Positions 1,355 through 63,794 of a stretch of 64,000 nt of DNA are shown here, in pieces. Location: the NCBI GenBank assembly GCA_964035545.1, contig OZ037767.1, positions 6,774,707 to 6,838,706 of the forward strand. The letters run 5' to 3'. The translations under genes and the position numbers were made by a program. Position 1 is the first letter of the stretch; every line of letters begins with the position of its first letter. Origin of the DNA: Bugula neritina. Lineage: Eukaryota > Animalia > Bryozoa. The notes beneath the pieces were generated by a model. It ran no database searches and was not told where the DNA came from. It was given only the letters and a program-made list of their open reading frames with translations.

Positions 1355-1383
1355 TGTGAATGAGAGTGGTATGTTTATGAATT

Positions 1384-3574: not shown

Positions 3575-3592
3575 ATCCCACTGCTGCCACCA
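3575..3592 (-). promoter_or_regulatory. Primer binding site, tRNA-Leu type
   Basis: Minus strand TGGTGGCAGCAGTGGGAT, 1 nt from the LTR; one mismatch to the element 2 PBS; complementary to the ...AUCCCACCGCUGCCACCA 3' end of metazoan tRNA-Leu(AAG). Confidence 0.85.
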
Positions 3593-3593
3593 C

Positions 3594-3937
3594 TGTTGTG
3601 AGTTTTAGCACAATTATCAAGCGTGGATTGCCTGCGTATTTAGTTTCAATTTAACTAGCAACTACTAACAGAGCTTGCGTACGATAACCTTTATTTAATT
3701 CGATAAACATAATTATAACAGTATGTCAAAACCACAATACATCAATCAATTATAAACACGTCTAGCTACTACGAGCCCCTGCTCTCAACACACATGGTTT
3801 CTGCTAGCTAACCCGCGAACAGTCACTTGACCGGAACCTTGTCTTCCGGTCCTTCTGATTGGATAGTAAAACATAGTTATAAGTATTCCCAAACAGGAGG
3901 AGACAAATGCATTATTATGCTACGTAATCCCATTACA
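3594..3937 (-). repeat. 5' LTR of element 1 (344 bp)
   Basis: TG...CA termini, adjacent PBS, minus-strand AATAAA near 3690; its last 48 bp equal bases 1-48. Confidence 0.88.
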
Positions 3938-27200: not shown

Positions 27201-30200
27201 AAAAGAAGCAGTTTAAAAAATGTTCTTCATTGCTACAATTCATGACTTCTGAAATGTGCCCACTTGACACTAGAGGAAGCTGTGTGTAAGTTGAGACAGT
27301 GAAAACACTAATAATTATGTCACAGAATCAATACCCAACACCATGTTATCTCAGCACCATTATATGCTATGAACATAACACGGCATATTACAAGGACTTG
27401 TATTCTACCATGCAGGGCTCTATGGACAAGTGCCAGCTAGTCATGGTATGTTTCACCCTGGGTTCTACCCTCCAAGGTGTCCCAACCCCGGAGACATGGC
27501 TACTCTACAAGCATATGGCCACCCGCCTTACCTGCAGACACATTCACTCGGCTATCCTATGAGTGGTCCACGTGCACGACCCCCTAGACCACTTCGGCCC
27601 CCTCGGCCCAGTCATCCCCAGAATATCGCACCTCCTCACTTTGGCCCAGCACATGGGGGCAACATCAACAGACATTCTGATGTACAACACAGAAAACACC
27701 AGGTTTGTAGTAAACCACATTAATGCATTTCTACTACTTTTTTTTATAAGGATACCAGTGCTATCACTGTAATACTACCACAATCAGTGCAAACAGCACG
27801 GCCAGTACCAACTTGACTAAGTAATGATTATAATTAAAAGCAGCAGTTTATCCAGTCACTATGTTTTGCTCATTACAAAGTCAGCTTGACAGTTGATATA
27901 CTAGTTAGAAGGTGTGAGATGCCTATTTCTGTCTGCACTTGGTATTTTCATTGAGGGAAATGAGTAGTGCATGCATTCAGAGCTGAGCTGGGAACCATTT
28001 CAATTTATATCAATTTAATCATTTATTAGTCCAATTCTCCGGGAAGTTGTGAATTTTGTGACCGATTTTTTTTAGCCATATAAATTTCATAATGAGCAAG
28101 AACAATATAAATAAGTTAGTCTATCTTAGTGCACGTGTTTGGGCAAAGCATGTTGATTTATAACAGCCGAAAGGTTTCGTTTCATTTTAAGAATTCACTG
28201 TACACTGTTAAGGTTATAATATAAAACAAACAACAATAGAAAGTTGGTACCTGTATTTATTATTGCTCTCTGTTGTCAAAGCATTACGAAATTTTGCTGT
28301 AGAGACGGCTAATAGGTTCCATTATACCTTTTTACTTGCCCAGTCACTCAGCGAACACAATAGGTTTCTTGCAGCATTCAATAAACTATTAACTTTTACA
28401 TTTTAAATAATATCGGTAAGGTCTATAATGAAATAGCAAATTGGTGCTTTATAAATGATGTGATAAGCTCTCATAATTGTCACTAAATTATGTTGTAATT
28501 AGCAGAGTGTTGAGGAACATCTTGCTTAAAAAGTTCACTATTCCTGGGTAGACAGAAAAAAACTTCAATTTGATTTGAGTGGAAACGCTGCTAATTGTCT
28601 TAAATTGTCCTGAATTAGTTTAACTGGTTTATCTAGCGCAATGGACAAAATCCTGTTGCACCTACATAATATGAATCTCTGGTAGGCTGCCAACTAACTG
28701 TGAATGGCCAGTAGTGTGAAAATATGTTTATATGGTAAATTAACTTGAAATTTTTCTTTTGTTCCAACAACCTATTGTAGTTTTGTAATTGTGTGCTCAA
28801 CATAATGAGGTTAACTAATTTATTATATTATGGTTAGCCTGTGTTCATCCAAGCATACAACTTTAACAATCTGGGGAAGGTATTGAAAAAACTATTCAAT
28901 GTAACAGTGTTTGTAGATTATTTCTACGGCTATTGTTCAACTCATGTGCTCTATATGGAACAGTAGTTACCAACCATGGGGATCCCCCTTCGGAAAGGGG
29001 TCATTTCTAAAAATTTTCTTGCAGTTCATTAATGCTTTTTGAGCTCTTGCCTTCTTCCCTATATATATCTATAACACCTCCACCTTATAGTTAATCTATT
29101 TTCTGCATTTAACCATCTAAATTTGTTTCCACCTGCATGTGTCTATTCATCACTCTACCTAACTGCTACCTGTGTTACTTCAAATGGAGGTTAAACAGTT
29201 TTTTGGGAGCAAAAACAACAAGAACTTTTAGCAGCCATGCAAGCTGACATCAATGAAGAAACTTAAACCTAAAACTGCAAGAGTGCAACCATCACATATT
29301 TGCTTTTCATAGCAGCATCAAAACCTCCAAAGCTAAGCTGAAGTTGTAGCAGACTTGCTTCCATATCAAAAATATGGTGTCTTTCCCACACCCAATGAAT
29401 AATTTATTAGGAAAAAACATGTTCCAGATTCTCTTTCTAAAAGCACTTCGCTAATATAAACTTGTGTGATGTGTTGTGTCAGTCATGTTAACTTGCATTT
29501 GTTTTGCTGTTGACATTACCTTATGGCTGTGGTTTCCTTCTATGCAACATTTCCATTAGGTGAATGAAAACTCCATTCACATCATGCAATCATGGAAATG
29601 TAGCGATAAACTCCAATTTTCAAAAGGGTTGAAATTAACAGTAATAAGAAGGGAATGGTATGAAAAGGTTGAGAATCACTGATATAGAATGTAATTTCCT
29701 GTTGATTGTGTAGAAACAAGGGTCAAGCTCTGACAGAAGACCAAAGATCTCGGTTGGCACACAGAATGAGTTTGGTTCAAAACACACCAACACTAAGTCT
29801 GGGAATGTATCCACCCGGTCTCTCACTAAGACTATAATGCTCATGGACACAGCCGCTCAAACTGGTCAGTTCTCTTTCCCCCCACCTTATAGTTACTAGC
29901 TCTGTATAGTAGTGATCTGGTGGTAGGTTGTTATCTTCTTTTGCCTATTTTCCTGAACCAGTATACCTGTATTACCTGTACTATAAGATAGAGAGAGTGT
30001 GTACCAACAGTGGTGTGTATAACTTGGCTATTCAAACTTCAATTCATCTCCCTTCACATTACAATGCAGACCTAAGCTTGCCCATAGATATGCCCTCTAT
30101 CCTACAAGAGTACTGGGTTATATTTCAAAACAATTTCTATGAATTTGTTGCAGATTTTGCTTCGGAGATTGCAGACCACACCTTGGAGCAGGTGCCCAAC

Positions 30201-33200
30201 GCTTTGTATCAGGGAAAGCGTAAGTTACGGCGGAAGACATTCCCCTCCCGGCAGCAGCATAATGGCGGCACGGATTCAACTGACAGCGAGGAGTTGGACC
30301 ACAGTGACTCTGGCTACTCCAGCCCTATGCACCGGCAAAACCAGATAAGCAGTGGAACAGATGCCCAGACCAAGACTGTGGACTCACACTCTAGCGGTGT
30401 ATCGGTGGGGGCGGTCACCACAGCCACCCATTACGTGACCACCCCGCCTCTCTCTGTGGTGACAGTCTCACAAGTTAGCTCGTGTACCCAGCTGCGACAA
30501 GCGAGTAGCGTGTACCATGCCACCCCCCTCTACAGTGAACAAATAACTCCCAGTCTAAGGAAGAGTTATGCCCTCTCTGCCAGTCTACACAGACCAGCCA
30601 TGGTAACAGTTCCTCATCTCCACACCAACATGCCTCAGGCTACGGGCTCACTCGCTCAGACCAAAGACAGCGCGCTGTCGGAGCAGGAGGATGAGTTGGA
30701 GGAAGCTCACCCTTCTGGAAAGAAAAGGAAGCGGAAACGAGGACGTCGGCGTAGAAAGAAAGGTATGTTCTGGGGATCTTAGAGTATACAGGAAACATAA
30801 AGTGTACGTGTTTAGTCACATCTAATTCAGAGATTCAGCTTCCGTTTGTGTTCATATGTAGTTATGTTGTTATGATAGTTTATAGTAAAGGTTGGAAATA
30901 CCTCTGATAGATTGCTGTGTGTTATGGGCCACTTCTAGGCAATTCAGTAGCTGCCTTTTCAAACCCGTCTCATGTTACAAGCATAAACTGTGTAGTCATT
31001 ACAGCTCAGTATGCTGAGTGTTTCTATTTCCACTAAAAAATAACTTTTGATAAGTTGCTGCAGCTATGAATGCCATTACATGGTGATTACTTGTAGTAAT
31101 GTTTGTAGCAATGTGAGGTATGCATGCTTTTCCTTTAGTGGTTAGGCAAGGCAAGGCAATGACTGAGCTGTGTATAGCCCAGTGAGTCACTGCCTTAAGC
31201 TAATCATGTAGTAACAATTAATTAGTTTATAAATACTCTAATTAAGCTGATATAATAGAACTGAAATAAAACCTAGCCTCGCCTCCTCAACTAACGAGTA
31301 ACAACCAACAGGTTGGGCCATCAAAGAAACTATTCAAGTGTTTGATAAACTCTGGAGAATTATGGTCTAGAAAAAATGCTTTAAATATTCCATATAATCT
31401 ATATTCTAGAATCTAGATACTGGCTACAGTTTCTAGAATGTTCCAGTTATAGGATGTCCATATAATATTTACCATCTTCTCACTGCAAAGCATTGAAGGG
31501 TGCTGATTGCAAATATCAGTTTTTTATTGAAAGATAAATAACATTTTAGTTTCATTGTTTTGGGTGAAGTGCTGCAGTGTTATGTGGAGCCAACGCTGTT
31601 TGAAGAAACTCACTTGTAGAACTAGTTTCTACTCAGAGTTTACCAAGAGACCATCATTTAGTATTTACCTTCCCAAATCTTTCACTCCAAGTAGAAGAAA
31701 TGATGCCCCCCCCTTGTCCCTTATACTTCTTCCTAAGCCCCCTATGGTCCTTCTATGCCCCATTATGGTTCCCTGTGGTCTCCTATACCCCCCCTATGGC
31801 CTGGTTAGACACATGTCAATCCAACTGATGATCTCTACTCTCTGCTGTATTTACAGACAAGACTTCTGCAGAAGATGGAACTGGGGGTAAAGTTGGAATT
31901 GTGGAAAACTTAGAGGTTCGCAATGTGAGTTTTATTTATATCCAGTGAATATTACACAAGTGTGTAATAGTTGGCTGTCTCTTTCAGATACACATATACC
32001 CATATCTTATGATGATTAACACTTGTTTGTTTCTATCCAGCAATCACCAATCCTTAGTCAAGAAACACCATTCAACTTGCTTTCACCTGACAGAATAGCA
32101 GAAAACTTCCCTTCTTTTGCCGAGGCTGGGTTGTACGACGGTAAGTGTCTGGTTCCACCAATCACATTAGCCGTGTCATAATATTGATTATACAGAATTG
32201 ATTATACTGAAACTGCAACTTCTACCGGAAGAACAATAGCATAACATTGTTACTCCTTATACATCAGTACCTCTCAATGCAATCTTTCAGCTCACATTCC
32301 TCTGTTTTAATTTATTAGAAATTACACAGCATGTTAATCTTGCGTTTTATAGTTTTTTTGCAGCACATAATCCCAGCATTATCCCGATATTTAGTTTGAG
32401 TTATGTGAGTTAGTATGGTATAATGTAGAGCTACAGGTACTGGATGGTAAATACCTTATATATCAAGCTACTGGCTCTCAGCTTGAGACAACCTCCATCT
32501 TGAATGTCCTTTCATAGTTTACTTGTCTTGGAATAATAGCATTTGATTTTAGAAGTCAAATGAAATGTAATTAGTTTAATGAGTCAGAAGTTGTTAGGCA
32601 GCAGTTGTGCTGACCTAACCTCTTAAAGTATTATCTGCAGCTGATGTCTGCTGTTTTTATTTCAGTTAGTCAACAAATTAAACTTTCTAGTTTCACTACA
32701 GAGTGTCTCTTGTCAGTTTAGTGGGTATTTTACTCTGCAGTAAGGAATTGCCTCCTCACTCACAAGCTTGCTGATAGCTCCCAGACAATAGTCACTTGGA
32801 TTAATCTAAGCTGTTCATATAGCTGAATGTTTCAAAAGCTTAGCTGTCAGTGTAGTCGAGTGTTGTGAATCCTTATAGAGTCTTGAGTTTTCTGGTTTGG
32901 GTCACTTCACCCACCCCCCCCCCCCCCAACTCTATTGCGCAGATTAGAGTTAGAATTGAATTTCTTAGATTCCTCAGAGTGTAAGCTTTCTGGAAAGAGG
33001 AAGAAAAGGCGGGAACAGGCTAATAAAGCTGCAATGGAAGAGCAGTTGGAGATTGACCTTGAACAGCAAGCCCTCAAGGTCGTTAACCAGACTCCTGTGA
33101 TAGTGAAACCTACGCCCCTTCTGGTCTCACCCCCTCCTGCCAGCGGTAAGAAGTCCCAGCAGCCAGTCTCAATAAATCTGATGGACTTCATTGCTAGCCC

Positions 33201-36200
33201 TAGTCCCAAGGTAAGTCTTTACACCTGAAGTTGTCCCCTCACTACAATACGAAACCACTTTATCCAGTAAATATGTAACTGTGAATGTATTCTTCAGTTA
33301 GAAATGGAAGGAATCTGCCAGCCTTTTTAAACCTAGCAAAAGTGGTGCAGAGAAAGTCCTTTTGTTTCTAGTATCTAGTGTTGAAGTAAACTTTATAAGT
33401 GTTTTTGATTGTTGGTAGTCAAGAGAGATTTTGTAAAAAGTGAATGCCTTGCTTTCCTGCTCTTCCTGTAATGCTATAACTTATTCCACGTTATTAGTAT
33501 ATTCTGTACTGTAACTAGAATCCATGCTGTAAAATGTAGGAAACATTCACCAGTGTTTACATGTGTTGTGATTGGTAGCTAGTGTAGCCTTTGTGCTCTG
33601 GTTATTGATTGTTTCAGTGTAGGTCAGTCGCATTCTCTATATACTTGTACATGAACTGCCACACTGTATTATATCGCTGACAGGCAGTTTTATATTACTC
33701 ATACAATATTTATACTATTAATATAACTGTAGTTTTATATTACAGCTTATAGTGTGTGTACTTTATATGGCATACACTCATTGTAGTTTAGTTATTTATT
33801 ACTACTCTGAACAAAATGGCTGTATATTATACGAGATGGTTCTCTTACCTATTAAGTATGGCATCTATCAACACTTGCAATGTTACATTCATACAAGGTT
33901 CCATTAAAGGAAGGCTTGTCATGTTTCCTGCCCTTTAGGACAGGCATTTCTATATACTTTTAACCAGTGATTTCTGAGGGCCTGCAGCCAGTCTAATCAA
34001 ATTTAGACTGAGATCCTAGAGTAGTTATATTACTCTAAAGGGTCCCGACATAGCTGAGTCTGTAGGCCGCAGACACTCAATTTCAACTTGTATTCAGTAA
34101 AAAAATATTGTTCTGTTTGTATTTTATAGCATAATGGAAGCAATGTTATAATATGCAGCCAATATGAGAAGACAACTCCTGTAGATAGAAATACTCATGG
34201 AATGTATTCATTTGTAGCCTCTGCAGTCGGATACTGAAACGCCCACGCCGGTGCAGAAAAAGAATAGCTTTAGTCCCAAGAGTACTGCAGCTCTCAATCC
34301 ACTGGACTCCTCCGCACCCAACCAAAAGCGGGGCAAGGAAAGGGAGACCCCTAAGGCTAAGAAACCCAGTGCCCTCAAGAAAGTCATTCTCAAAGAGAGA
34401 GAAGAGCGGAAACGGATGAGGTAGACGTTTTTGAAACTGTAACTTTATAAAGTAACATAGAGATGTGTTTATAGAGCAAAATTCTGCATGTAATTTTAGT
34501 CAATAAAGTTGCTTTGTTAAAAAGAGCTGGTGATATCCTAGCAACCATTAGCTCTGAACTCAAAGGATCCGCCATCAGTGTAATACTAAAGTGTCTTGCT
34601 TGCTGCCGCTTGTTTGCTGACTTAGTGTGTGTCTTAGTAATTCCTCTGGCCAATTAGATGTTGGGTTTGTGTTCAGGTACATTGGAGACGGGCCAGTTGA
34701 TCTGATCTCTACACCTGACTCCAGTCTCCACTTCACTTCTGAACCGGAAGAGAACGACGAAGATGATGTAATCAGTGACATAGAAGAAGCCAATTTGCTA
34801 GGCAATAGCTCTATAGGTTGGTAAAACTAGCACCTCGTTTCCATTTCTTGGAATGGATCAGTTTTGATGCATTTGTGGTTTCGGTTCCCATTAACTTATG
34901 GTTACGGTTTCACTCATTCAACTGTTCCCAAACATCAAATGAAAAATCCATGCAAGCAATGGAAACACAGTGATGGTATATAAACTTTCTGTTGGTATTG
35001 TTGTCTCTGTATTTATACTGTTTCAAACTGATGAACTGGTATGACATATTGAAAGCCTGGTGGAATTTTAGCTCAATATTTTTATAGTACAAGACATAAA
35101 AAGTTAAGCATTGCTAGACATCAGTTAGGTTCACGGTGCCAGGTCAAGTGAGAGTAAGTGATTGCAGCAGATGTGTGAATGTGATGGCATATTGTGTGGA
35201 GTGTCGGTTACAAATCTGCAGCTTCTGTTACATTGTGTCAAAGGTTCTTAGAAATAATTAGTCTACAGTGACGTATTCAGCACTATATAGTAATTATATA
35301 TAACACCATGTTGCTCTGCTTACCTGTAGTACACTCTGCCATATGTATTTTCATCATATCAAAGTAGTGTTGAAGTGATTGGAGACTTGCAGGTTTTAAA
35401 AATCCCCAAAAAATGACAAATATGGTTTTATGTTTGAATGTTTATTGTGGTTGTTGATAGATAACGTGTCTTCGTATTACAGGAGATGACTCAGGAACAC
35501 CCCATAGTCAAGATTTATCCCCTGTTAGTCAAAACTCTCCGATAAGTGTCGGATTGTTGTCTCCCCCGACCAGCCTGAGTAATCCAGCCAGTGGTATCGG
35601 CAGCCCTACTGTTGTCAGCGACATCATACAGAAGATCCATTCCCGTAGATTTAGAGAGTAGGTGTTGGGCACGCTCTATAGATAATGTATAAACCTTCCC
35701 ATTCTATTTGTAGATAAGGTATAAGTTTTTCCATTCTATTTGTAGATAATGTATAAACCTTCCCATTCTATTTTTGATAATGTATAGACCTTCCCATTCT
35801 ATTTTTAGATAATGTATAAACCTTCCCATTCTATTTATAGACAATGTATAGACCTTCCCATTCTATTTATAGATATTGTAAGCAAGTCCTGGACAAGGAG
35901 ATTGATGCCAACTGTACCAACCTTCTGCAAACTCTCGTCAAGTTCCAAGACCGGCTCTACCACAAGGACCCTATAAAAGCAAAGACAAAAAGAAGGCTTG
36001 TACTGGGTTTAAGGGAGGTCACCAAACACCTCAAACTTAGAAGGGTTAAACTGGTCATTATATCTCCTAATCTCGAGAAAATACAGTCTAAAGGTAAGAA
36101 ACTTTATCTTTCTAAATTAATTTTGCCCTGTGAACAGTCGATGAGTTATATTATATGTTTCATGAGATATGGAAGGGTACATAGATCCTTCTGCTGTATT

Positions 36201-49599: not shown

Positions 49600-52299
49600 C
49601 TAACGGCCCTGAGATTTATATATTTTCATTATGTGGGCAGTCTCTGATAGAGCCATATTAATGCACATAGAATTGTTCAAGCCAAAATCAGTTAGTAGAT
49701 AACCTTGCGAGTTACCATATGGACGGAATCGAAAATCTTTTATTTTATAAGCAGGTAAAGACTCTTTAATGCATAATTTTTCCCAAGAAGTTCGTAGCTT
49801 CTTTAATCTTAAGACCTCACCAGCAAGGTAATCTTTTTTCCTAGCAATAATGGCTTCCAGTTTATTTTTGAAGTAACAATATAATGAAACGTCAGCGCTT
49901 AGAAACTTGTAGACAGTAGCTCTATTTTTTTCGTTGTCTTCAGGTAAAAGAGTTTCATTTTTCGTAGAAGATGTCATGTCGCGTTGACGATTTGACTGAA
50001 AGTAAAGAATATCTAAATCTTTCCACCCTAACATATCTCTTAGCAATATCAGGCATTCATCAAAATATTCAACAATAATTACGAAATGGAATTGTTTTTC
50101 AAGGCTATTAATTAGCTCCTCTATGACTTCGTGATTATTGCTGTTTGCTAAGCTAAGACCTAAATCATATGCTTGAGGATTTTTAAAAATAGTATTGCAA
50201 ATACGATGTCCAGCATTGATCAATTCTAAGAGAGAATGATTCCGATTATCTTGGCTATGCTTGCAGTTTTGCAGATGATAATATCGATACACTGAAGCAA
50301 GCTGTTTAAATGGATCCCTTAGAGAAGTCAGGTAAAAGCTGTCTGCCGGCATAGTCTTTACCAGATCATCAGAAAAAACAGTATGCAAACAAAACACATC
50401 TGGGACTTTTTTGCCTAAATGAGGATACAAATTTTGCCGGAATTTGTTGGGCCAACCAAAATTGACCAAATTCTTTCCAGGAGGAAAAGCAAATGACAAG
50501 TTTCTCTTAACTCCTGCTCTCATAATGATGTTCTGTATAGTGCAACTAGCAGTCTTATGCACTTTTAGATAGACGATGTGGTTACTATTGAAAGCTCTAT
50601 GATTGAAATACGTTGAGGCTTTATGTTTTATGAATTCCCCATCTGCTATTTGTGATAATGCTTTAAGGTGACATTTTTCCTCTACATTAAAATAGTGAAG
50701 TTTTAAATCTGCTGCAGAGTTATAACCTAAAAGTATAAAAAATATTTCTACCTACTTTTATTATAATAGGACTAGGACTACCATTGTAACTGTCATGAGC
50801 AAGGCAAACATACAATAAAAACTAAAGCTTAGGATTTGGTGTCGAATTAATAAAATGTATTATCCAGCTTGCAAAAAAGATGAAAAGGTTTCTGGAAATT
50901 GGTAATTTGCACTAAAAATATTTGGCTGCAAGTGGTATTTTCAAAGTAAAATTACTTGGTGTTAGACAATTTTAGTTTTATTTTAATGAACCAGAATCAT
51001 AATTTATTATTGAAACAATGATTAGACAAAAATATAAGCTCCTTACCAACAAACAAGTAGACAAGAACTGAACTCAGAGCCAAAATCAGCAATGCTAGAA
51101 CTTTTGCTTGTTGTCTGCTCAGAATGTTTAATCTGAAAAAAAATTATGGCAACAGAAGTGGTTAAAACTCAAGCAAGTTGAACGCTGAAATCTCTAACTG
51201 TTTTAAACTATATAAGTTCAGCCAACATCTGCAATAATTTATAGCTAAAGGTGTCAACAAGCTAAGATTTCAAAAACGTCTATCTTTTTTTAATTTCAAT
51301 ACAGCTCTCAACTACAAGCTAATGAATCTTACTATGAAACACAACTTTATATATTAATGGCAGAGCTTTTCGAATTAAAATTTCTTAAAACAATATGTTA
51401 TTATAGGCTATATAAATTAATTTGACCAAGACTAAGGTGGCAGTGGTAGAACTGGAGTATTTATAGAACTGCTGATAAGCTGGAAGACAAGAAAACTTAT
51501 GAGTTATGACAAAATTATATTCTGCACTACACCCAATAGCAAAAGCAGAAAGGCTGGCTGCATGTATGTTAGAAGGAAAGAAGACAGCAGAGGAAAGATT
51601 TCAATTGAAAAATGTGAATAATTAAACTTGTCAGATAACATCAAGAAAAGACCGTAGAAGAGAACACAACATTCAAAAGATTTCTTGAAGGCAAAACCAC
51701 GTAGCAGTTAGCAGTAAACATTGATAAAGTAATTGAAAAAACTAATGAAGGAAAAGAAAAGGCTCTACATGATCAGTACACCAGGAGCTAGTATGAATGG
51801 TTGAAAAGGCAAACAGAAATACTGTTGTTGGCTGCTTAAGATTAGGCACTTCCTACTAGGAATAAACAAGGCAGAAAGAAGTGTTGGACATGAAATGAAA
51901 GGCATGAAACTGTGATGCATAGCCTACACCCAGTAAATGTGAGAAGCAAACACCGAGCAAATTTTAGTAGAGAAATGAATATTTGGCTTTTTTAATTCAC
52001 TGAGAAGTGTCTGAAATCCATAGATTTCAGAAGAGCACGAATTGGTTCAACCACAGAGTAGAATTAGTAACCGAGAATGAAAACATAATTTTTTGGTTAT
52101 TTCAAAATGTACACTAACAGAGTCATCAAAGCTAGAAGAAAGGCCTAATATCATTGTAATTGACAAGCACACTGCAAAAAATAATGATCAATAATATAGC
52201 GGTCTTTGGCGAAAATAATAGAGTCAGAGAAGATAGGAAAATACCAAAAGATGACATTACAACTCACCCATCTTTGGGGAAATTCTTAGTAATCTCCAT
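49600..52299 (-). CDS. GAL3ST: Galactose-3-O-sulfotransferase family protein; exons 52299-52268, 51132-51047, 50726-49600; 414 aa
   Basis: Type II transmembrane anchor VLALLILALSSVLVYLFV; 5'-PSB motif IVYLKVHKTASCTIQNI; 3'-PB motif LTSLRDP...SVYRYY; NPQAYDLG; FVIIVEYFDECLILL. Exon phases are compatible. Confidence 0.9.
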
Positions 52300-54035: not shown

Positions 54036-54581
54036 TATCTTGATCTTGATTGGGTTAATTAAGTCACAAGACCTCTCGGAGAGAGTAATTATGGGACCCT
54101 CGGATCTATCCAGGCTCAGAAATCCGCTACTATCTCCCCCGTACGGAGCTCCCGGACAGTGCGCAACAGGAAACCCTGCAGGTACAAGCTCGAATCGCAG
54201 GCTATAGCATTGTAGGTGTTAATACGGGTATTAATGTTATGGGTTGAGGATTTCATAGATTTAAGTGTGTTATTTATGGTTGGAAATAAATCATCATTAG
54301 CAGTAATACGACACAACAATCATCATGACTGTCTGCGCTTTCTTAATGTTTCTAGGCCTAGGCCGATACTTCTCTACCTTTTAAATTTTTAATGAACCGT
54401 ACAACCCTATTTTGAGTAACTTCTAATTTTGTTATTAGATGTTTATTGCATGGGTCCCATACTTCAGCAGCATATTCCAGGAGAAGTCTAAAAGAGTTTT
54501 ATATGCAAGAATTTTAACATTTTCTGGGGCATTTCCTAGTGTGAGCCAGAATAAACCTAATACTCTGTATGCCTTTGATAT
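54036..54581 (-). mobile_element. 3' part of a decayed LINE (ORF2 C-terminus, 3' UTR and tail), split by element 2
   Basis: Continues KHVENLI|SKAYRVLG...LAYKTL, then (frameshifted) LEYAAEVWDP and ...GFLLRTVREL; stop at 54116; short (ATCAAG)n tail. Confidence 0.8.
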
Positions 54582-54890
54582 TGTTATGATTTTCAGAATT
54601 AGGGTTGATATGCAATCCAGAGAGTCTAATTACTTGCTATAGAACTGCACCAGGATAAGTCGAGTGAACGAGTATATATTTTAAACACACAGATACATTA
54701 CAAAAACGATACAAACACATTTGACAATTCACACATCTAGACTATTCAACACTCTAACTTCGACTGACTGACAGCGGGAAAACTATGATTGCTGCTAACT
54801 AACTCGAAGCCGCTAATTGGCTATCAATTGTTCCGGGTCAATTACGCGACCCTATATACTGTGCTGCTGGTAGCTCCACGAGCCACCACA
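54582..54890 (-). repeat. 3' LTR of element 2
   Basis: TG...CA termini; matches 61786-62094. Confidence 0.96.
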
Positions 54891-54910
54891 CCGCCCCCAC
54901 CAGCAGAAAG
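54891..54910 (-). other. Polypurine tract of element 2
   Basis: Minus strand CTTTCTGCTGGTGGGGGCGG abuts the 3' LTR. Confidence 0.75.
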
Positions 54911-55182
54911 CCCTCTTTCTGATATAAAAAAAAACATTCGTCATTAACCACATACATCAATAGACCAAAAGATAATACATAACACATATAAAGATATCTA
55001 ATAACAGACAGAGTCATTATAACAGCAAGTAACATACAATTGGCCAGCTATAGAGGAGGAATACCGGCTAGCTGTGGTATTGGACAAGGAGTCGACCTGT
55101 CGAGCAGTCAAGCATTTACATGATAGTCTTGGGTCTCCCAAGAGGACGAAGTTGTGGATTATTCCGGGTAGCAGAACCAGAG

Positions 55183-56255
55183 TCAATGTTGGGCACGCCG
55201 ATGTTTGGCTTGGCATGTACGTAGCTTCCGCTTAATCCGGCCCACTGATCCTTTCAGTTGGAAGAGCCCCGTCGTGGTATTGAGCAGGTCGGGTGCTAAC
55301 TGGGTAAATTCCTCCTGCAGTCGGAGGAGACGCTCCTCTACTGTGGCTAGGCGAGCAGGGTCTGGGGACGGTGTCCGTCTGCGGCGCAGAGGGGGACTGG
55401 GAGACCTGGTTCGTCTCTTCATCGGGGTAGGGGAGACCTCTCCTTCTTCGGGATAGGAAAACTCTTCGGGGGTGTACGCAATCTGAGGGCGGTCAGATAC
55501 CAATGGAGATTGTTGCCTGGCATTGTCTAGTACACGCTGGAAACCTGAGGTCAGGACGGCTAACAACATCGCCTTCTTTACTAGGGGTCGTATCAGAGTG
55601 AGGAATTCTGGATAGAGCTTGGCATCTACCACGTAATTCTCTCCGGAGAAACAGCCTGTTGCTCGATGTCTGGTGACAGGGTAGGGGTAGACATCATTGT
55701 ATCCGCAGGGGCAGAATGTGAGTAAGAGATGGGCGTTGACGTGTAGCTTCAAGGAGCGGTGAGAGGCACATTCTTCGCCACAAATCTGGCACCGCGTCCG
55801 TCCTCTGGACCCCCAGGCCGTTTCTATCTGCTCCTCTGTTTCTGGAGACACCCACCGCCAACGGCGGCGCAGTGGCTCGGGCCGGTCACCATTGGCATAC
55901 TCCTCAGGATGCGGAGCGGGAAGTGCTCTATCCCGTACCCTGGTTGTAGCGGGTCGAGTGTAATCTGAAAAAGTTTCAACAGTGTTAGTACAGTACACTG
56001 CCGTGTTGTCGGCTTGAATAGCCTGGCAACTCCTCATTCAGTTACCTCGTAGAGATCTATGGTAGTGAATAGTCAGATAGAACACGTATTGCAATGAGAT
56101 TATAAAAATCTCTAAGTCAAACTGAGTTCTTACTACGGTATTTCACTAACCTATCTCCAGCTCAATTGACTCGGTGAGTCGGAGCTGAGCGATGCAATCT
56201 AGTTTCCATATTAAGATATAGTTAACTCACCCCACGATCTGTTGTCGTACGACAT
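55183..56255 (-). CDS. Retrotransposon accessory ORF3: zinc-finger/Arg-rich/coiled-coil protein; predicted exons 56255-56231 and 55964-55183, 268 aa
   Basis: CQIC-x12-HVNAH finger, CPC...H...C cluster, RRTRSPSPPLRRRRTPSP and heptad C-terminus. Micro-exon MSYDNRSW, G|GTGAGT donor, TACTAAC branch point (55990-55984) and TTTTTCAG|AT acceptor join in frame. Confidence 0.78.
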
Positions 56256-56279
56256 ACTGAATTTGTGAAATGGTTTGAA

Positions 56280-56528
56280 CTACTGCTTAGAAACACGTCT
56301 ACTCCTGACTGCATCAGCGTATGAAAAGATCGAGCAACGTGGTTGGGGTGCGTGATTAAGACTTTGTGCACCCGGCGGATGAATTTTGTTTCTATTTCCG
56401 CCGATACAAAAGTTGATATTTCCGTGGTGTTGACAACTCCCACATTTGCTCGATACTTTTCTCGTACGGTTTTCCCCTAGACTTTCATATGCGCCACTTT
56501 TAACGCAGTCGCATACGAAGTCCTTCAA
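56280..56528 (-). other. Out-of-frame C-terminal tail of Pol
   Basis: Homologous to the in-frame tail of the element 1 ORF; rejoined to Pol by removing one base from the G7 run at 56535-56541. Confidence 0.7.
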
Positions 56529-59500
56529 ATATGCGGGGGGGTTGCCTCGTACGTTGTCCCCTTTCTAGGGGGGGTGACACGCTCGCCGGTTTATTAGCAG
56601 GGGCCTCTAATGGCGTCTCTACTTCACCGTTGGCGGTCACTTCTTCTTGTTCTCCGGATGGAGCCCCTCCCTCCGTGGGGGTTTGCACTTCCGGAACCGG
56701 CCCGGTTTCTGGAAGTGATGGAGTTAGACTTGGTGGCGGCGGACACGCTTCTGTTGGCAAAAGCTGTCGCTCTTCTCTCACCAAGTTTTCCTCCCGCGGT
56801 ATGACCACTTCATATTCAGGTCCATGCCGCCGTCGCCCGCGCGTTGTTGTCTGCCTCCTGGGCTCCAACAACGGGGGGGCTTCTCCCACTGCGTCGGGGC
56901 TAGCCCAATACGGCTTCAAGCGAGACTCATTCTGGATAGACACCTGTCCTGAGCGCTCAATCTTGTACGTATGGTTGGGCATAGCCTCGACGATCACGTA
57001 GGGTCCCACGAACTTAGGCTTTAATTTGTCAGCCTGCCCGTGACGCCTACGGTAATTGACCATCCACACCTTATCTCCCGTTTGGTAGAGAGGTGGTTCC
57101 TCGGAATCTTCGTGCCGCACCTTCCACTGCTGTTCGCGCAGTATATCGTGTGCGGCCTTCATCCGTTCCACTAGTTCACTGGCATACTCGTGAATCGAGT
57201 TGTCTAGCTCTGGAACGTGGTAGGTGAGATGGTCAGGTACCCGGGTTTCTCTCCCGAGCATCAAGAGGTTTGGGGTCTCACCAGTACTGGTGTGTGGGGT
57301 GCTACGGTATGCGCGCATGACCTGCGGCAATACCGTGTCCCATTCCTCTTGACTGCGTCCAAGGAGGAGACTCCGGAGCGCATCACCTAGCATCCGGTTG
57401 TTGCGCTCCACCACCCCATTACCTTGTGGGTGATAGGGGGTGGTCCTGCTCTGATTTACTCCCCAGAGGCGACAAAGGTCGCTCATCAGTTGAGACTGGA
57501 ATTGAGCGCCTTGATCAGAGTGTATCTGCTCGGGGAGACCGAAATAACAGAATACATGTTGGTCTAGTACCCTGGCCACTGTCGGGGCTGACGCATCTGG
57601 GATAGCCAGAGCATCCGCCCACCTAGTAAAGTGGTCGGTTAATACTAATATCCAACTATTGCCTCTGGGGGTCAGGGGCATGGGTCCGACCAGGTCTACA
57701 GCGACTACTTGCCAGGGCCTTCCAGCATATAGCCTCCGCCGTCCCGCTTCACCAGGGAGACGGCTATGCTTACTGGCCTGGCAGATCTCACACTGTTTGA
57801 CTCTGAGTCGGACGTCACGCTCCATGCGTGGCCAATACCACCGGAGTCGTAATTTGGACATCACTCTCTTGACCCCTGCGTGGGCCTGTTTGTGAGTATC
57901 CCAAATCAACTCACGGCGGATGGCAGTGGGGCAGACTACCCTCTTCCTCTCCGGATGTCTGCCGCTGGCGGCTAGAGAGATGGTTAGTAAACCATCCTGC
58001 CCGATCCGCAGCGAGTCCCAACGCTGACAGTATAGCCGGAACTCGGCGCATCCCTGTCGTATGCGTTCCTCGCTGGGTCGTCGCCCTTCCCTCTTGGCCC
58101 GATATATGTCTGCCACGACTCCAGGCAGCTCTTCTTGGAGCTTCTTCAGCTCTCGGACATTATCGGCCAGTACAGGGTTGGCGCGGAGGTTTTGTACAAC
58201 CTCCGGGGACTCGTCAACCTCCTGTCCGAGTTGACCCTGGTCCCAGTCAAACGGTGCTCCGTGGTGAGCCAGCGTCTCCAACTCACATCGCGGGGGACCT
58301 CCATCCCTCCTCTCGATGTGGAGACACTGTTTGCAACCTCCATCAGGTCGGCGACTCAAACCATCCGCATTGCTGTGTCTCTTGCCCGGTCGATGTTCGA
58401 TCCGGTATGAGAATTCAGCTAGGATTTCGAGCCACCGGGCGACCTGACTAGAGGGCTCTGCTCTCTTGCACAACCAGATCAGCGAGGCATGATCCGTACG
58501 CAGCCGGAACTTCCTGCCATATAGGTATGGTCTGAAGTGCTTCACTGACTTGATTACTGCCAGCAGCTCCTTGCGGGTAGTGCAGTAATTTCGTTCAGTG
58601 GGTGAGAGAGACTTGCTGTAGTAGGCTACTACTACTTCTCGGCCTTCCTGCACTTGAGACAGCACAGCGCCAACATTTTGGTCACTGGCGTCAGTGTCGA
58701 GGATGTACTCCAGAGTGGAGTCTGGGTAGGCCAAGATGGGCGCCGTTAGTAGGCAGCCCTTGAGGCGGTCGAACGCTCCTTGTTCGACTGGGGTCCACTG
58801 CCACGTCACTCCCTTTGCGGTGAGCCGGTTTAACGGCTGTGCTATGCCCGCAAAGTCTGGTATGTATTGTCTGTAATACCCTACCAGCCCCAAGAAAGCC
58901 CGGAGTCCGGTCAAGTCTTGGGGGGTGACCCAGTCTTCTATTGCCCGTACCTTCTCGGGATCCGTTGCCACGCCGTTTCGACCGACAACGTGCCTCAGGT
59001 ACTTAACCTCTGGCTGCAATAGAGCGCACTTGGAAGGTTTGAGCTTAAGACCGGCACCTTGGAGTCTCTCAAAGACCTCCTGCAGACGACTGACATGCGT
59101 CTCGAAGTCTGGGGAGATCACGATGACATCATCGAGGTAGATCAGCAGTGTCTTCCAATGGAGCCCGCTGAGGACTTGCTCCATCAACCTCTGGAAGGTG
59201 GCTGGGGCGGAGGTTAACCCGAACGGCAACACCTTCCACTTCCACAAACCGTCCCGTGTGATAAACGCCGCTTTCTCCTGGGCGTCGGGACTCAGAGGAA
59301 CTTGCCAATAGCCACTCAGCAAGTCTAACGTACTGAAGTACTTGCTGCCGGCTAGGTCGTCCAATGACTCGTCAATACGAGGTAGAGGGTAGGCGTCCTG
59401 TATGGTTACGCTATTGAGTTTGCGGTAATCCACACAGAACCGCCAACTGCCGTCTTTCTTCCGGACCAGTACGACCGGCGAGCTCCACGCACTATGGGCG

Positions 59501-60852
59501 GGCTCTATCAGTCCCCGGTCCAGAAGATCCCGTACTTGTCGGCTAACCTCCTTCTCTTTCTCCGGCCCCAGCCTACGTGTGGGTTGCCGGACAGGGACTG
59601 TCCCTGCAGTCAGCGGTATTTCGTGTCTGACAACTCCAGTCAGCCCCACGTCATGATCTCCGCTGCTGAACACATCACCGTAGTCGCGTAGTAACTTCGC
59701 CATAGCTTGGCGTTCTTTGTTACTCGCGCAGCCGCCACAGGCTGTGTCATACAACTCCCGGAGATGTGCTGGGACTGTCCCTCGCCCTTGAGTAGGGCAC
59801 CGAGGGAATGCCTCCGTCGCATCACCCAGCGACGGGCCTACGTCCTCCTCCTGAACAGAGTGAAAACGGCCCAGCATAGACCCAGCCGGAAGCTTGACAG
59901 ACTCGGTAAAGGGGTTGACGCACTGCACTAAGATCTCCCCTTGCTCAGTCAGCTGATTCAGACTGCTGGCAAGTTGGATCTTTTCGTGCGCGCCTTCAAC
60001 TACCCCGAGTCCAGAGATCCGGCTATTGTTCACCCTGCAGTGAATGGTAGCCCGGGAGCGGCCTGGTATGGTACGGTTGCGTACCACCTGCACACCTCCC
60101 ACTAAAGGGCGGCCGAACTTGTCGACGCAGGCGAGTTCTCGCCCGGACATCATCATCGCAGATTTACTAAAATCGATGTGACATCCGTGCCGTTTTAGGA
60201 ATGGCATCCCGAGGATGGCGTCCTCCTTGAGCTGACTGACGATGAACGTCTCTTGGATCGTTTGATCACGGACTCGTCCCGTCAGCTCAATTATACCATA
60301 GAAGGGAAGGCACGACCCGTCAGCTAGGGTGCCATACTCCCCCTCGTATGATTCCATCTCGCCCCTGACCCTAGCACTGAGGGTGTCGAAGAGTTGGCGG
60401 CTTAAGAGGTTTGTGGTACAGCCCGAATCAATGAGGAAAGTAACAGCTTTGCCTTCCAGTTTACCGGGCAAGAAATAGCTGTTCCCATGGGGCTGCACCT
60501 GAACTCTCTCTTCAGGCCTTACTCTCGCAGGGAGTACCTCCCTCGCTTTGGGTCGCGAAGGAGGTCTCTTGGGATGGTGGTAAGTAGGCCTCGGAGGTGC
60601 CGAGGCTAGATTTCCGGCTACCTTTGTTGGCTCCCATCCAGATTCTTGGGCTGGTAGCCCTTCGAATCGATTGTGGAGGGGCATGGAAAAGGTAGCGGCG
60701 GGGCGGAGCCCCTTGCTGGTCCGTCGTGGCTGTTGCCACTGTCGGTTGCCAGTACGCGGTGCCCGTCTGGGTGACCTGCGTTTCTTCTTCCCTGGAGGTT
60801 TCATCGTCGGCCCGCAGGAGGTGGGAACATCTGCGGGCCGCGGTAGTTTAAC
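56500..60852 (-). CDS. pol: Pol polyprotein (protease, RT, RNase H, integrase), expressed by -1 frameshift from gag
   Basis: LIDSG; WRFCVDYRKLN; LPFGL; YLDD; LDTDAS...TDH...ADGLSR; HHCC; DLVGP...HSDQG...GVVER; GPY motif. Confidence 0.96.
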   Translation of the reverse strand, partial: VKLPRPADVPTSCGPTMKPPGKKKRRSPRRAPRTGNRQWQQPRRTSKGLRPAATFSMPLHNRFEGLPAQESGWEPTKVAGNLASAPPRPTYHHPKRPPSRPKAREVLPARVRPEERVQVQPHGNSYFLPGKLEGKAVTFLIDSGCTTNLLSRQLFDTLSARVRGEMESYEGEYGTLADGSCLPFYGIIELTGRVRDQTIQETFIVSQLKEDAILGMPFLKRHGCHIDFSKSAMMMSGRELACVDKFGRPLVGGVQVVRNRTIPGRSRATIHCRVNNSRISGLGVVEGAHEKIQLASSLNQLTEQGEILVQCVNPFTESVKLPAGSMLGRFHSVQEEDVGPSLGDATEAFPRCPTQGRGTVPAHLRELYDTACGGCASNKERQAMAKLLRDYGDVFSSGDHDVGLTGVVRHEIPLTAGTVPVRQPTRRLGPEKEKEVSRQVRDLLDRGLIEPAHSAWSSPVVLVRKKDGSWRFCVDYRKLNSVTIQDAYPLPRIDESLDDLAGSKYFSTLDLLSGYWQVPLSPDAQEKAAFITRDGLWKWKVLPFGLTSAPATFQRLMEQVLSGLHWKTLLIYLDDVIVISPDFETHVSRLQEVFERLQGAGLKLKPSKCALLQPEVKYLRHVVGRNGVATDPEKVRAIEDWVTPQDLTGLRAFLGLVGYYRQYIPDFAGIAQPLNRLTAKGVTWQWTPVEQGAFDRLKGCLLTAPILAYPDSTLEYILDTDASDQNVGAVLSQVQEGREVVVAYYSKSLSPTERNYCTTRKELLAVIKSVKHFRPYLYGRKFRLRTDHASLIWLCKRAEPSSQVARWLEILAEFSYRIEHRPGKRHSNADGLSRRPDGGCKQCLHIERRDGGPPRCELETLAHHGAPFDWDQGQLGQEVDESPEVVQNLRANPVLADNVRELKKLQEELPGVVADIYRAKREGRRPSEERIRQGCAEFRLYCQRWDSLRIGQDGLLTISLAASGRHPERKRVVCPTAIRRELIWDTHKQAHAGVKRVMSKLRLRWYWPRMERDVRLRVKQCEICQASKHSRLPGEAGRRRLYAGRPWQVVAVDLVGPMPLTPRGNSWILVLTDHFTRWADALAIPDASAPTVARVLDQHVFCYFGLPEQIHSDQGAQFQSQLMSDLCRLWGVNQSRTTPYHPQGNGVVERNNRMLGDALRSLLLGRSQEEWDTVLPQVMRAYRSTPHTSTGETPNLLMLGRETRVPDHLTYHVPELDNSIHEYASELVERMKAAHDILREQQWKVRHEDSEEPPLYQTGDKVWMVNYRRRHGQADKLKPKFVGPYVIVEAMPNHTYKIERSGQVSIQNESRLKPYWASPDAVGEAPPLLEPRRQTTTRGRRRHGPEYEVVIPREENLVREERQLLPTEACPPPPSLTPSLPETGPVPEVQTPTEGGAPSGEQEEVTANGEVETPLEAPANKPASVSPPLERGQRTRQPPRIFEGLRMRLR

Positions 60853-61754
60853 CCCGGAGTTAGGAAGGGACAGTACCTGCGGAAATGTCCTTGATTTCCG
60901 CATTCCCAGCAAAAACTGACCGTTTCCCCCTGTGGCGGCGCCGGTGGCCGTACGGGCTCAGCGGCGGTACCTACTGGGGTTTGGGGTGTCAGTGTTGCTA
61001 TCAGTTTGGCCAGCATGTCTGTCAGTTGAGTGACTTTTGATGCTGTCGCTAACTGAGCCACGGCAGCCGTGGCGGAGGTTTCCTCCTCTCGTCCTGCTGC
61101 CGTGTCCGTGCGGTCTACCTCCACTTGACGGGAGCTCCCGCGACTTTTATGCATTTGACTTGCTAGGAGGTAAGCTTCCCCCTCAGTCAGAGCATTTTCA
61201 ACGGTGGTGACTCCCCTAGCTAGAAACTGGTGGTGGAGACCCAAATCGTCGACAGATGCTATGAAAGCGTCGAGGGTATACCTCTCGCGGTTGACTGGGG
61301 GCAAGTCGCTGTATGCGATCTGTGCCAGCTTCATGACCGCGGCGGCATGCTCTCGCAGCGGGGTGCGGGGATCACGCCGCAACCTCTGCAATCGGGCCCT
61401 GGCATCTGTAGCAGAGAGGCCGAAGCGGGCCCGCAGAGAAGCAAAGATATTATCGATGTCTACGCCCAGCCCATAAGGCTTGGCTTTGTCCATCAATGCC
61501 ATTCTAAGCTTTAGCAGGGCCACCCTAGGGGGCCACTGGGCGACGTCCATTACGTCGCTAAACTCTTGGATGAATTGTTCCACCTCCTCTTCGCCCGTGA
61601 AGGTGGGCGCCTTTAACCGGTAGCGGTCTTCAGTTAGTTCTCGCGGAACCCTTCGCTCTTCTACTACATGGTTAATAGGCATTGTCTCTACAGCATTGTC
61701 TCTACGCTCACCTTCTACTGCCGGTGGTTGCGTTCCAGCATTTTCAGTCTCCAT
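60801..61754 (-). CDS. gag: Gag (317 aa) with CCHC zinc knuckle
   Basis: ATG just after the PBS; KAPTFTG...FIQEF capsid-like region; CWECGNQGHFRRYC. Confidence 0.93.
   Translation of the reverse strand: METENAGTQPPAVEGERRDNAVETMPINHVVEERRVPRELTEDRYRLKAPTFTGEEEVEQFIQEFSDVMDVAQWPPRVALLKLRMALMDKAKPYGLGVDIDNIFASLRARFGLSATDARARLQRLRRDPRTPLREHAAAVMKLAQIAYSDLPPVNRERYTLDAFIASVDDLGLHHQFLARGVTTVENALTEGEAYLLASQMHKSRGSSRQVEVDRTDTAAGREEETSATAAVAQLATASKVTQLTDMLAKLIATLTPQTPVGTAAEPVRPPAPPQGETVSFCWECGNQGHFRRYCPFLTPGLNYRGPQMFPPPAGRR
60808..60852 (-). promoter_or_regulatory. -1 programmed ribosomal frameshift signal
   Basis: G_UUA_AAC in the gag frame (60852-60846), a 5-nt spacer and a perfect 10-bp GC stem CGGCCCGCAG/CUGCGGGCCG, all inside the gag/pol overlap. 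Confidence 0.8.
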
Positions 61755-61766
61755 CTTGGATGCACT

Positions 61767-61784
61767 ATCCCACCGCTGCCACCA
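61767..61784 (-). promoter_or_regulatory. Primer binding site, tRNA-Leu type
   Basis: TGGTGGCAGCGGTGGGAT (18 nt), 1 nt from the LTR. Confidence 0.9.
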
Positions 61785-61785
61785 C

Positions 61786-62094
61786 TGTTATGATTTTCAG
61801 AATTAGGGTTGATATGCAATCCAGAGAGTCTAATTACTTGCTATAGAACTGCACCAGGATAAGTCGAGTGAACGAGTATATATTTTAAACACACAGATAC
61901 ATTACAAAAACGATACAAACACATTTGACAATTCACACATCTAGACTATTCAACACTCTAACTTCGACTGACTGACAGCGGGAAAACTATGATTGCTGCT
62001 AACTAACTCGAAGCCGCTAATTGGCTATCAATTGTTCCGGGTCAATTACGCGACCCTATATACTGTGCTGCTGGTAGCTCCACGAGCCACCACA
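61786..62094 (-). repeat. 5' LTR of element 2
   Basis: Matches 54582-54890. Confidence 0.96.
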
Positions 62095-63794
62095 ATATGA
62101 GATTTTCGACATGCTTATTCCATTTTAAATCTGCTGATAGCAATATTCCAAGGTATTTTACAACTCCAACTCTATTCAGGGGATCTTCTCCTAATTTATA
62201 AGTGAAGACATTTTCCATATTTTCTGTTTTCTTACCAAAGGTGATCACATTACTTTAATTCTTTGAGTTAAACTTCATATTGTTTTCTTTTGCCCACCTA
62301 TAAAGTCTAGAAAGATCTTCCTGTAGTTTATGATGATCATTTGGATCAGTAATGGGCAGATAAACAAGAGTGTCATCAGCAAAAAGCCTGACTGTACTAT
62401 GTGTAACGCAGTTTACAATGCCATCAATAAACAAAACGAATAATGTTAGACCCAGCACACTTCCTTGTGGAACCCCGGAAGTCACTGGTGCTAAGTCCGA
62501 AGATACCCGTCAATGACCACTCGTTGTGAGCGTCCAGTTAAGAATGATGAAACCCATCGGATAATACAGGGATTTATTTTTAACAATATCAATTTATTTA
62601 CAAGAATATGATGGTCAATTACATCAAAGGCTTTAGAAAAATCCAGCACAACTGCTTCTACAAAATGTTCTTTATCTATATGCCTTAATATATCGTGGGT
62701 GACAGTAGCGAGCTAAGTAACACATGAAAAGTTGCGGCGAAAACCATGTTGGTTTTCATGTATCAAATTTTCCAATTGTGTGTTTAAATGATGCAGAACC
62801 ACATGTTCAAGAATTTTACAACAAATGCACGTTAGTGATACTGGACGATAGTTGGAAGCTAGAGTGCGGTTACCCTGTTTAAACACAGGTGTTACATTTG
62901 CAGTCTTCCAGTCATCCAGCACTATTCCTGTATTGAGTGAATGATTGAAAATACACACCAGTATTTCTGCTGTTCGATCTAAGTCCACTGTGAGATAGTT
63001 CTTTGTGAATCCATCTACTCCAAGAGCTTTACCTTGTACAAGTTGTCTCAGCAGGTTCACAACTCTTTCTTTAGTTACCACTATATTATCTTTCTCAGTG
63101 ACTGATGGTAATTCTGGTAGAGGTGATGGAGTGGTAAATACACTGTAGAAGAAACCATTAAGAGTGTTAGATATCTTAGTTTTATCATACGTCAAGATAC
63201 CATCGTTGTTTTCTATGGAAGTAATCTCATTATAATTCCTTTTTAGTTCTTTAAAATATTTGTAAAACGGTTTTGTGTAGCCACTGGAAAGAGGTTGGTA
63301 TAGACGATTCACCAGAAAAGATGCTTTTTGTTTTCTAAATAATTTTTTTTATTACGGCGACGTAATTCTTTATATTTAGCCAAGTGATCAGCATTACCAG
63401 ACTTTTGAAAGCGGTTGTAAAACTTTCGCTGTTTCTTACATGCCCGTCTGGCTTCATCATTAAACCAGAGAGGCTCATGTAGATTTCTAGGCTTACTTTG
63501 TTTAGTTGGGACATATGAATCAACAAGTCTATGTAATTCAGTCTTAAATGTATTCCATATAACATTAATATCATATTTCAACATTACTTTGTTTTTAATA
63601 GTATAAAGCAACTCATCTAGACCAGTTGTAAACCCGCCGAGTTCGATTTTGTGGAATAGCTTGATGGGGGGGGGGGGGGATAGATGGTTTCTTCTTCTGT
63701 TCAACTTTACCAGTCAAGACTGTTTCTATCATGAAATGGTCGCTAATACCCGGTGTTATTACGTTTGTGCTTTGAACTTTATATGACAAGTCAG
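62095..63794 (-). mobile_element. Decayed APE-type non-LTR retrotransposon (LINE) ORF2, 5'-truncated
   Basis: PGISDH (end of endonuclease), NYRPVSLTCICCKILEH, QHGFR, LDFSKAFD, SGVPQGSVLG, LFADD, KYLGI; several stops and frameshifts. Clade not assigned. Confidence 0.92.

Follow-up and report, generated by a model that had tools for sequence, protein, structure and literature searches.

How ORF3, the third open reading frame of a Ty3/Gypsy retrotransposon, is expressed, and how an intron on the sense strand could persist in an element that is copied through RNA, are the questions raised by this locus. An earlier note had described an intron and an ATG micro-exon ahead of ORF3 in two related elements, and its proposals of a spliced ORF3 and of unspliced RNA as the copied form are both supported by the analysis reported here. 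Throughout, "the window" means the whole 64-kb stretch of DNA that was analyzed.

Two related Ty3/Gypsy elements

Two GC-rich inserts, both on the minus strand, lie in the animal DNA of the window (∼33% GC). Element 2 (62094 to 54582, minus strand) is a Ty3/Gypsy retrotransposon with open gag and pol and a third ORF between pol and the 3′ LTR. Its LTRs match at 307 of 307 compared positions, and a 4-bp target duplication (ATAT) flanks the element. As in Metaviridae (Ty3/Gypsy), LTRs of the form TG...CA occur together with a primer binding site (presumably for tRNA-Leu) and a target site duplication, and pol has the order protease, reverse transcriptase (RT), RNase H, integrase (Pfam positions 164, 498, 721, and 1010 to 1177). 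No gag family from Pfam was found for its gag. The two genes overlap in different frames at 60801 to 60957, which implies a translational frameshift. Element 1, a relative on the same strand, runs from 3937 to the window edge; most of its pol is gone through an internal deletion that left the integrase H2C2 domain (Pfam). Its gag goes out of frame close to the start, yet the conserved block, micro-exon, intron, and open ORF3 described below are all kept (1 to 3937).

61786 to 62094, minus strand: 5′ LTR of element 2 (309 bp, TG...CA), identical to the 3′ LTR
61767 to 61784, minus strand: primer binding site of element 2, directly after the LTR
60801 to 61754, minus strand: gag of element 2 (ATG at 61754, CCHC motif at the C terminus, 133 homologs)
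56500 to 60957, minus strand: pol ORF of element 2 (protease, RT, RNase H, integrase, and SH3/GPY-F by Pfam)
54582 to 54890, minus strand: 3′ LTR of element 2 (309 bp), with a G-rich tract ahead
3594 to 3937, minus strand: 5′ LTR of element 1, which is internally deleted
1 to 48, minus strand: start of the 3′ LTR of element 1, cut by the window edge

The insertion site of element 2 is a decayed LINE reverse transcriptase gene (62095 to 63350 and from 54581 downward). The window also contains a host ORF for a galactose-3-O-sulfotransferase (49600 to 50751, minus strand; Pfam PF06990), a 288-aa open frame (29916 to 30782, plus strand) that has no Pfam match, ends in a basic run, and is likely a host exon, and minisatellite arrays, the units of which are 5 to 32 bases long (8584 to 8863, 14672 to 15530, 16760 to 16895, 25401 to 25568, and 35649 to 35900).

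A probable splice acceptor at the start of ORF3

55183 to 55964, minus strand: ORF3 main exon of element 2, with a Cys/His domain (∼55890 to 55507), a Pro/Arg/Ser-rich linker, and a C-terminal helix with a basic tail
326 to 1068, minus strand: ORF3 main exon of element 1, 53% identical to that of element 2 over 219 aligned amino acids

Expression of ORF3 by read-through from pol was rejected: the frame is the same, but 10 stops occur in 179 codons. Among homologs, similarity to ORF3 (74 matches) starts at the residue that is encoded across the acceptor junction. The boundary pattern was found in 25 of 197 ORF3 entries; two of these (P0095 and P0122) were spurious, and 23 truly span the boundary. 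S or L precedes D/G in 22 of the 23, which, as inferred from protein, is compatible with a YAG acceptor; the 23rd is P0027, described below. The frame just 5′ of the acceptor AG differs between subfamilies while the frame 3′ of it is common to them, so the stretch before the AG is not coding. The branch motif occurs as CTAAC, CTCAC, and, in assembled contigs of run X1, CTTAC, forms that differ at its free position only, and the region from branch site to acceptor is 77% identical between the elements, compared to 47 to 54% around it. By pyrimidine count, the acceptor of element 2 is only sixth among 11 candidates with a branch motif, and one rival candidate of this type lies inside the short intron, at 56057. 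Judged from these features, the ORF3 acceptor is very likely real. The same branch site (A at 55985) and acceptor would also close a 5747-nt intron running from gag to ORF3. On balance, we lean slightly toward an arrangement in which two donors use this predicted acceptor, a leaning that concerns the architecture and excludes function.

A candidate short intron and ATG micro-exon

56231 to 56255, minus strand: candidate ATG micro-exon of element 2 (25 nt, phase 1)
55965 to 56230, minus strand: short intron of element 2 (266 nt), with GTGAGT at its start, TACTAAC at 55990 to 55984, and branch A at 55985
1333 to 1354, minus strand: candidate ATG micro-exon of element 1 (22 nt, phase 1)
1069 to 1332, minus strand: short intron of element 1 (264 nt), with GTGAGT at its start, CTCAC at 1091 to 1087, branch A at 1088, and CTTGCAG at its end

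Rereading of the minus strand confirmed the intron coordinates, lengths, motifs, and phases that had been given for both elements. The micro-exon ATG is indeed in frame with ORF3 after splicing, resulting by arithmetic in proteins of 268 aa (element 2) and 254 aa (element 1). The short intron of element 2 ends TTTTTCAG. All U2-type signals are present (GT donor, yUnAy branch site, and YAG acceptor), and both introns contain stops in all three frames. With a generic donor matrix, whose frequencies are approximate, the donor at 1332 ranked first of 223 GT sites in element 1 and that at 56230 second of 448 in element 2. The donor region, with 13 of 14 positions identical between the elements, is the best conserved among the 291 14-nt windows from the conserved block to the branch region. 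Identity amounts to 41% in the spacer before the ATG and 49 to 54% in the intron body; other identical runs of 8 to 9 nt are also present within the intron. The micro-exons differ by 3 nt in length yet keep phase 1, with the ATG aligned between the elements. These predicted splice signals exceed chance.

The further claim that ORF3 has no ATG unless it is spliced turned out to be wrong, as in-frame ATGs exist in the unspliced ORF3 of both elements: in element 1, residue 24 of exon 2 is an in-frame Met, upstream of the conserved domain, and the unspliced ORF of element 2 begins at ATG 56037, within the intron. In 16 of 19 ORF3 rows, a Met is present between acceptor and domain (absent in element 2, P0001, and P0002), so that a spliced-in ATG would be unneeded in most members. 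None of the upstream AGs (0 of 16 and 0 of 17) would allow the micro-exon to follow the gag exon in frame as a cassette, and this reading was therefore rejected. The result points to a start site of its own (or to reinitiation).

The short intron is known from two copies only, those of elements 1 and 2, and the viral, metagenome, and genome contigs searched yielded no match for the DNA of other family members. In the contigs of run X1, no match to the short intron was found among 15 listed joints of 52, nor among all 4 joints on 940 to 1560; rare variants are dropped from such assembled contigs, which therefore have no bearing on intron-less copies. No variant at a 30% share was listed in these contigs at the GT, AG, or ATG of element 1, from which invariance does not follow. 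We consider the short intron with its ATG micro-exon a plausible and reasonably probable second route to ORF3 (route B).

A stronger predicted donor in gag and a junction protein

61706 to 61754, minus strand: gag exon and donor of element 2, with 43 coding nt (61754 to 61712) and the phase-1 donor AAG/GTGAGC from 61711

The earlier note had placed both splice sites downstream of pol. This holds for the sites of the short intron, but a stronger donor is located in gag at 61711. It follows gag codon 14 in phase 1, in frame with ORF3, and ranked first of the 448 GT sites in element 2 with the same generic matrix. A corresponding footprint was seen in Gag homologs: residue 15 is G, S, or R (codons able to read xGT) in 64 of 66 N termini and D in 2 of 66, and residue 16 is E in all 66, within an N terminus that varies in sequence and length. 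The distance of this footprint from the first Met varies between Gag subfamilies. The 66 rows (element 2 and 65 of 120 listed homologs, the other 55 being too short or lacking the anchor motif) share ancestry and hence are not 66 independent tests, and the conservation of E16 could reflect constraints on the protein. A donor-compatible residue at position 15 is missing from element 1 and from its nearest Gag relative, P0435, so that route B would be their main route. A further phase-1 GT site, in frame with the gag ATG of element 1, is found at 3465.

The junction itself is seen in one protein, P0027 (JGI, 5320-nt contig). Its first 14 residues equal the start of Gag P0370 (14 of 14), and after residue 14, where P0370 has G-E, it goes straight to the first residue of the ORF3 exon. 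Both ends of the junction coincide with independently predicted splice sites, and P0027 is alone among 213 ORF3-side entries in having a long run in common with a Gag N terminus. A longer micro-exon was ruled out as the source of its N terminus, the sequence being Gag. The length of the contig (5320 nt) suggests that it is a DNA copy of a spliced RNA; however, the junction is known from this single protein and could also have arisen by a short-homology deletion. In P0187 and P0177, apparent pre-RT Pol sequence is joined to the zinc finger domain at the same point, which looks like a recurrent deletion derivative or another splice. Considering donor, footprint, and junction, splicing from the gag donor at 61711 to the ORF3 acceptor in the manner of env mRNAs (route A) is highly probable. 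The contrast with env mRNAs that had been drawn for this intron is not supported, as the acceptor pairs in frame with a 5′ gag donor and P0027 has that junction.

Against this two-donor arrangement, use of the gag donor alone carries considerable, if minority, weight. In that case, GTGAGT at 56230 and 1332 would be a regulatory U1-binding or decoy site, or one kept by descent, and the micro-exon ATG would be incidental. All evidence of the junction type, that is, P0027 and the Gag footprint, concerns the gag donor, identical runs of 8 to 9 nt occur elsewhere in the intron, and the internal promoter is still putative. In contrast, the short-intron donor is the best conserved of the 291 windows and has the top rank in element 1, the aligned ATG holds phase 1 across a 3-nt indel, and the gag donor footprint is absent from the subfamily of element 1. 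Conversely, the short intron might be the sole splice and ORF3 dependent on the micro-exon ATG, as the earlier note had it; although signals, phase, and length agree between both elements, this is improbable given the stronger in-frame gag donor with its footprint in 64 of 66 rows, the P0027 junction, and the availability of other in-frame ATGs. We give very little credence to a lack of splicing altogether, in which case translation of ORF3 would begin at an internal Met of an unspliced subgenomic RNA and P0027 would be a deletion product. Such expression would agree with the Met that 16 of 19 rows have upstream of the domain and with the unspliced internal-promoter env mRNAs of Tor3b/4b (available parts of PMC4402516). 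However, the two ends of the P0027 junction match splice sites that were predicted independently, no such Met is present in element 2, P0001, or P0002, and the elevated identity of the branch-acceptor region (77% versus 47 to 54% around it) argues against it.

A conserved block after pol

56290 to 56444, minus strand: conserved noncoding block of element 2, a candidate structured RNA element or internal promoter
1385 to 1539, minus strand: conserved noncoding block of element 1, aligned with that of element 2

The block (155 nt) is 74% identical between the elements, compared to 41 to 45% in its flanks. Its consensus fold has a z score of −4.3 versus column shuffles (0 of 500 shuffles; two sequences, dinucleotide content ignored), and its single-sequence fold has z scores of −0.63 in element 2 (no better than shuffles) and −2.51 in element 1. 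Three stems are predicted, and all 8 differing positions in the 31 predicted pairs still pair. Contigs of more diverged relatives from run X1 stack on the 5′ 35 nt of the block. Rfam gave no match over 54500 to 62200. The block lies inside the predicted long gag-to-ORF3 intron and would thus be confined to RNA not spliced from gag. Instead of a structured RNA element, it could be the promoter of route B.

The ORF3 protein and fusion of its domain to Pol in relatives

ORF3 consists of a disordered N terminus, a ∼125-aa domain, a Pro/Arg/Ser-rich linker, and a long C-terminal helix with a basic tail, the last present in 37 of 47 rows. The domain has the motif C-x2-C...H-x3-H followed by C-x-C...H...C, in which C34, C37, H50, H54, C60, C62, and H75 are conserved to at least 90% (84 sequences); the model of the domain reached a pLDDT of 95.6 (84 sequences). 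A profile search returned 124 relatives. No significant match to the domain was obtained in Pfam, PDB, or BFVD, and Foldseek at an E value of 0.001 returned nothing for the full ORF3 model or the domain alone; the top PDB matches of the domain were tandem C2H2 finger-DNA complexes, all nonsignificant (E value of 0.34 and weaker). Neither ORF3 protein of the window matches the classical C2H2 zinc finger (Pfam zf-C2H2) at an E value of 0.01; 7 of 84 homologs match zf-C2H2, and 9 of 84 match zf-C2H2_4. There is no consistent transmembrane segment: the best 19-residue hydropathy is 1.51 and 0.88 in the two elements and exceeds 1.6 in 5 of 47 rows. ORF3 was rejected as an Env, having no transmembrane anchor and no match to an Env family or fold. 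By these sequence features, it is predicted to be a soluble zinc-binding and nucleic acid-binding regulator.

In at least 25 of 122 Pol homologs (P0211, P0212, P0234, P0238, P0241, and 20 more), the ORF3 domain, usually followed by the C-terminal helix, is fused in frame after integrase, ∼200 to 650 residues past the GPY/F motif; 25 is a minimum, as some unfused Pol rows may be incomplete. In a quick, unrooted tree without a clade test, from which no order of events is claimed, all 25 fused forms fall in one 102-row clade (SH-aLRT of 100) that includes element 2, where they are interleaved with unfused forms. The nearest relatives of element 2 are unfused. An annotated bryozoan protein, P0438/P0096 (XP_067940963.1, Watersipora subatra), contains two copies of the domain and a C-terminal helix, and could be either a domesticated copy or a host source.

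Proposed expression and function of ORF3

In the proposed scheme, RNA from the LTR would be spliced from the donor after gag codon 14 to the ORF3 acceptor, dropping gag-pol, and in env mRNA manner would encode a 274-aa protein with 14 Gag residues at its N terminus (route A). Route B would rely on a short transcript, probably from an internal promoter in or near the post-pol block, that carries the ATG micro-exon and from which the 266-nt intron is removed. The introns would persist through the unspliced LTR-to-LTR RNA, which would encode Gag-Pol and be reverse-transcribed; ordinary copying of this RNA is sufficient for intron survival. The persistence of a sense intron is therefore no paradox. 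Sense splice sites are normally retained in retroviruses and in Cer1 (PMC3315495, PMC10309623), for which reverse transcription of the unspliced RNA is established. The spliced mRNA would be made first, and the ORF3 product might then bind the structured block in unspliced RNA and license its nuclear export. Such a Rev- or CERV-like role in the export of unspliced RNA is our single most likely function for ORF3, although held only tentatively. It is favored because of the CERV-like layout of the predicted mRNA, the putative zinc-binding domain together with a basic helix, and the conserved, possibly structured block in the long intron. No homology of ORF3 to Rev or CERV was detected.

Nuclear export has two close rivals, transcriptional regulation and integrase tethering. 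ORF3 could possibly, though on the unlikely side, be a DNA-binding transcriptional regulator, either a Tas-like transactivator or an anti-silencing factor, acting on the LTR or internal promoter. The tandem C2H2 finger-DNA complexes among the best folds (E value of 0.34 and weaker), the match of 9 of 84 homologs to zf-C2H2_4, and the pairing of an internal promoter with a transactivator in foamy viruses (available parts of PMC7828637) are in line with this role, but the fold matches are all nonsignificant, and RNA binding is also open to zinc fingers and basic helices. The Pol-fused domain after integrase is at least as compatible with a role linked to integration as with export. Tethering of integrase to chromatin or target DNA by the domain, which would be part of Pol in some elements and act in trans in element 2, is the less likely of the two rivals. 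While the domain in 25 of 122 Pol homologs occupies the chromodomain position of chromoviruses downstream of integrase (available parts of PMC7998251), fused and unfused forms are interleaved in the tree, the nearest relatives of element 2 are unfused, the domain of fused forms lies ∼200 to 650 residues beyond GPY/F, and expression from a separate spliced mRNA implies that the domain is supplied independently of Pol.

Comparison with known systems

The comparisons below draw on the available parts of the cited sources. As is proposed for ORF3, CERV of Cer1 (Caenorhabditis elegans) is a Ty3/Gypsy accessory protein from a spliced mRNA with Gag N-terminal sequence; it has a cysteine-rich putative zinc finger and a coiled-coil region, and the genomic RNA skips the splice sites (PMC10309623, PMC3315495). 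In contrast to ORF3, CERV comprises 517 aa and five exons overlapping gag, contains a G-protein-like domain, and in that source is reported from nematodes only (PMC10309623). ORF3 is set apart by size and layout, being located after pol and having a C2H2-like domain, and no G-protein-like fold was found among its structure matches; export is shown for CERV and putative here. In Oikopleura, Tor3a resembles route A, with a donor near the gag start spliced to an acceptor before the third ORF, and Tor4b resembles the proposed start of route B, with the promoter of the third ORF in the post-pol intergenic space (PMC4402516). However, the third ORF of Tor elements is a transmembrane Env, their internal-promoter transcripts are unspliced, and the two routes are assigned to different element groups, not to one element (PMC4402516). 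The env mRNAs of Drosophila errantiviruses and retroviruses likewise use a 5′ donor and a 3′ acceptor for an ORF between pol and the 3′ LTR (PMC4402516, PMC7264820). They differ from the proposed ORF3 mRNA in their product, as ORF3 is without a consistent transmembrane segment or Env family match. Foamy viruses, the internal-promoter transcripts of which are spliced, are unlike element 2 in being retroviruses with env. Their Tas/Bel-2 resembles route B in being an accessory regulator near the 3′ end that is expressed from an internal promoter (PMC7828637).

Pol of Gypsy_Ds1 (Darwinula stevensoni) is similar to the fused relatives in its 250-aa extension past integrase with a coiled coil at the end, whereas a zinc finger or splice is not reported in the available parts of that source (PMC7998251). 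An extra Ty3/Gypsy ORF between pol and the 3′ LTR is also known from brtn of Botrytis Boty-like elements and from plant aORFs; unlike ORF3, these are antisense, so that their introns are never exposed on the genomic RNA strand (PMC8365987, PMC7264820). Transcripts of sORF2 are described as unspliced in the available part of the source (10.1101/2025.03.14.642691), and splicing and zinc fingers are unmentioned in that of PMC13524379. Literature searches, with subscription journals, Repbase reports, and supplements largely outside their coverage, yielded no account of the ORF3 domain or of a gag donor and a post-pol micro-exon feeding one acceptor.

Implications

The intron itself is ordinary retroelement biology, and the value of the locus lies in the accessory gene and its wiring. 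Its interest rests with an undescribed, clade-wide accessory zinc finger module that may have a dual expression route. The ORF3 domain is characteristic of a large clade of elements and lacks a family model, and one relative of it is annotated as a bryozoan host gene. The way in which intron-containing retroelement RNA evades nuclear retention has been explained for HIV, for a few retroviruses, and, within the Ty3/Gypsy literature found, for Cer1. For the study of such RNA export, the family provides a compact candidate pair, a 270-aa protein and a 155-nt element. In its most complete form, which as a whole we regard as doubtful, the proposal describes a Ty3/Gypsy clade, apparently unnamed and widespread, that would combine a Rev-like zinc finger regulator with a structured post-pol response element, in which the module would alternate between a Pol tail and a separate spliced gene and the acceptor would be fed by both the gag donor and an internally promoted micro-exon. 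If true, this would place the expression plan of a complex retrovirus in an env-less retrotransposon.
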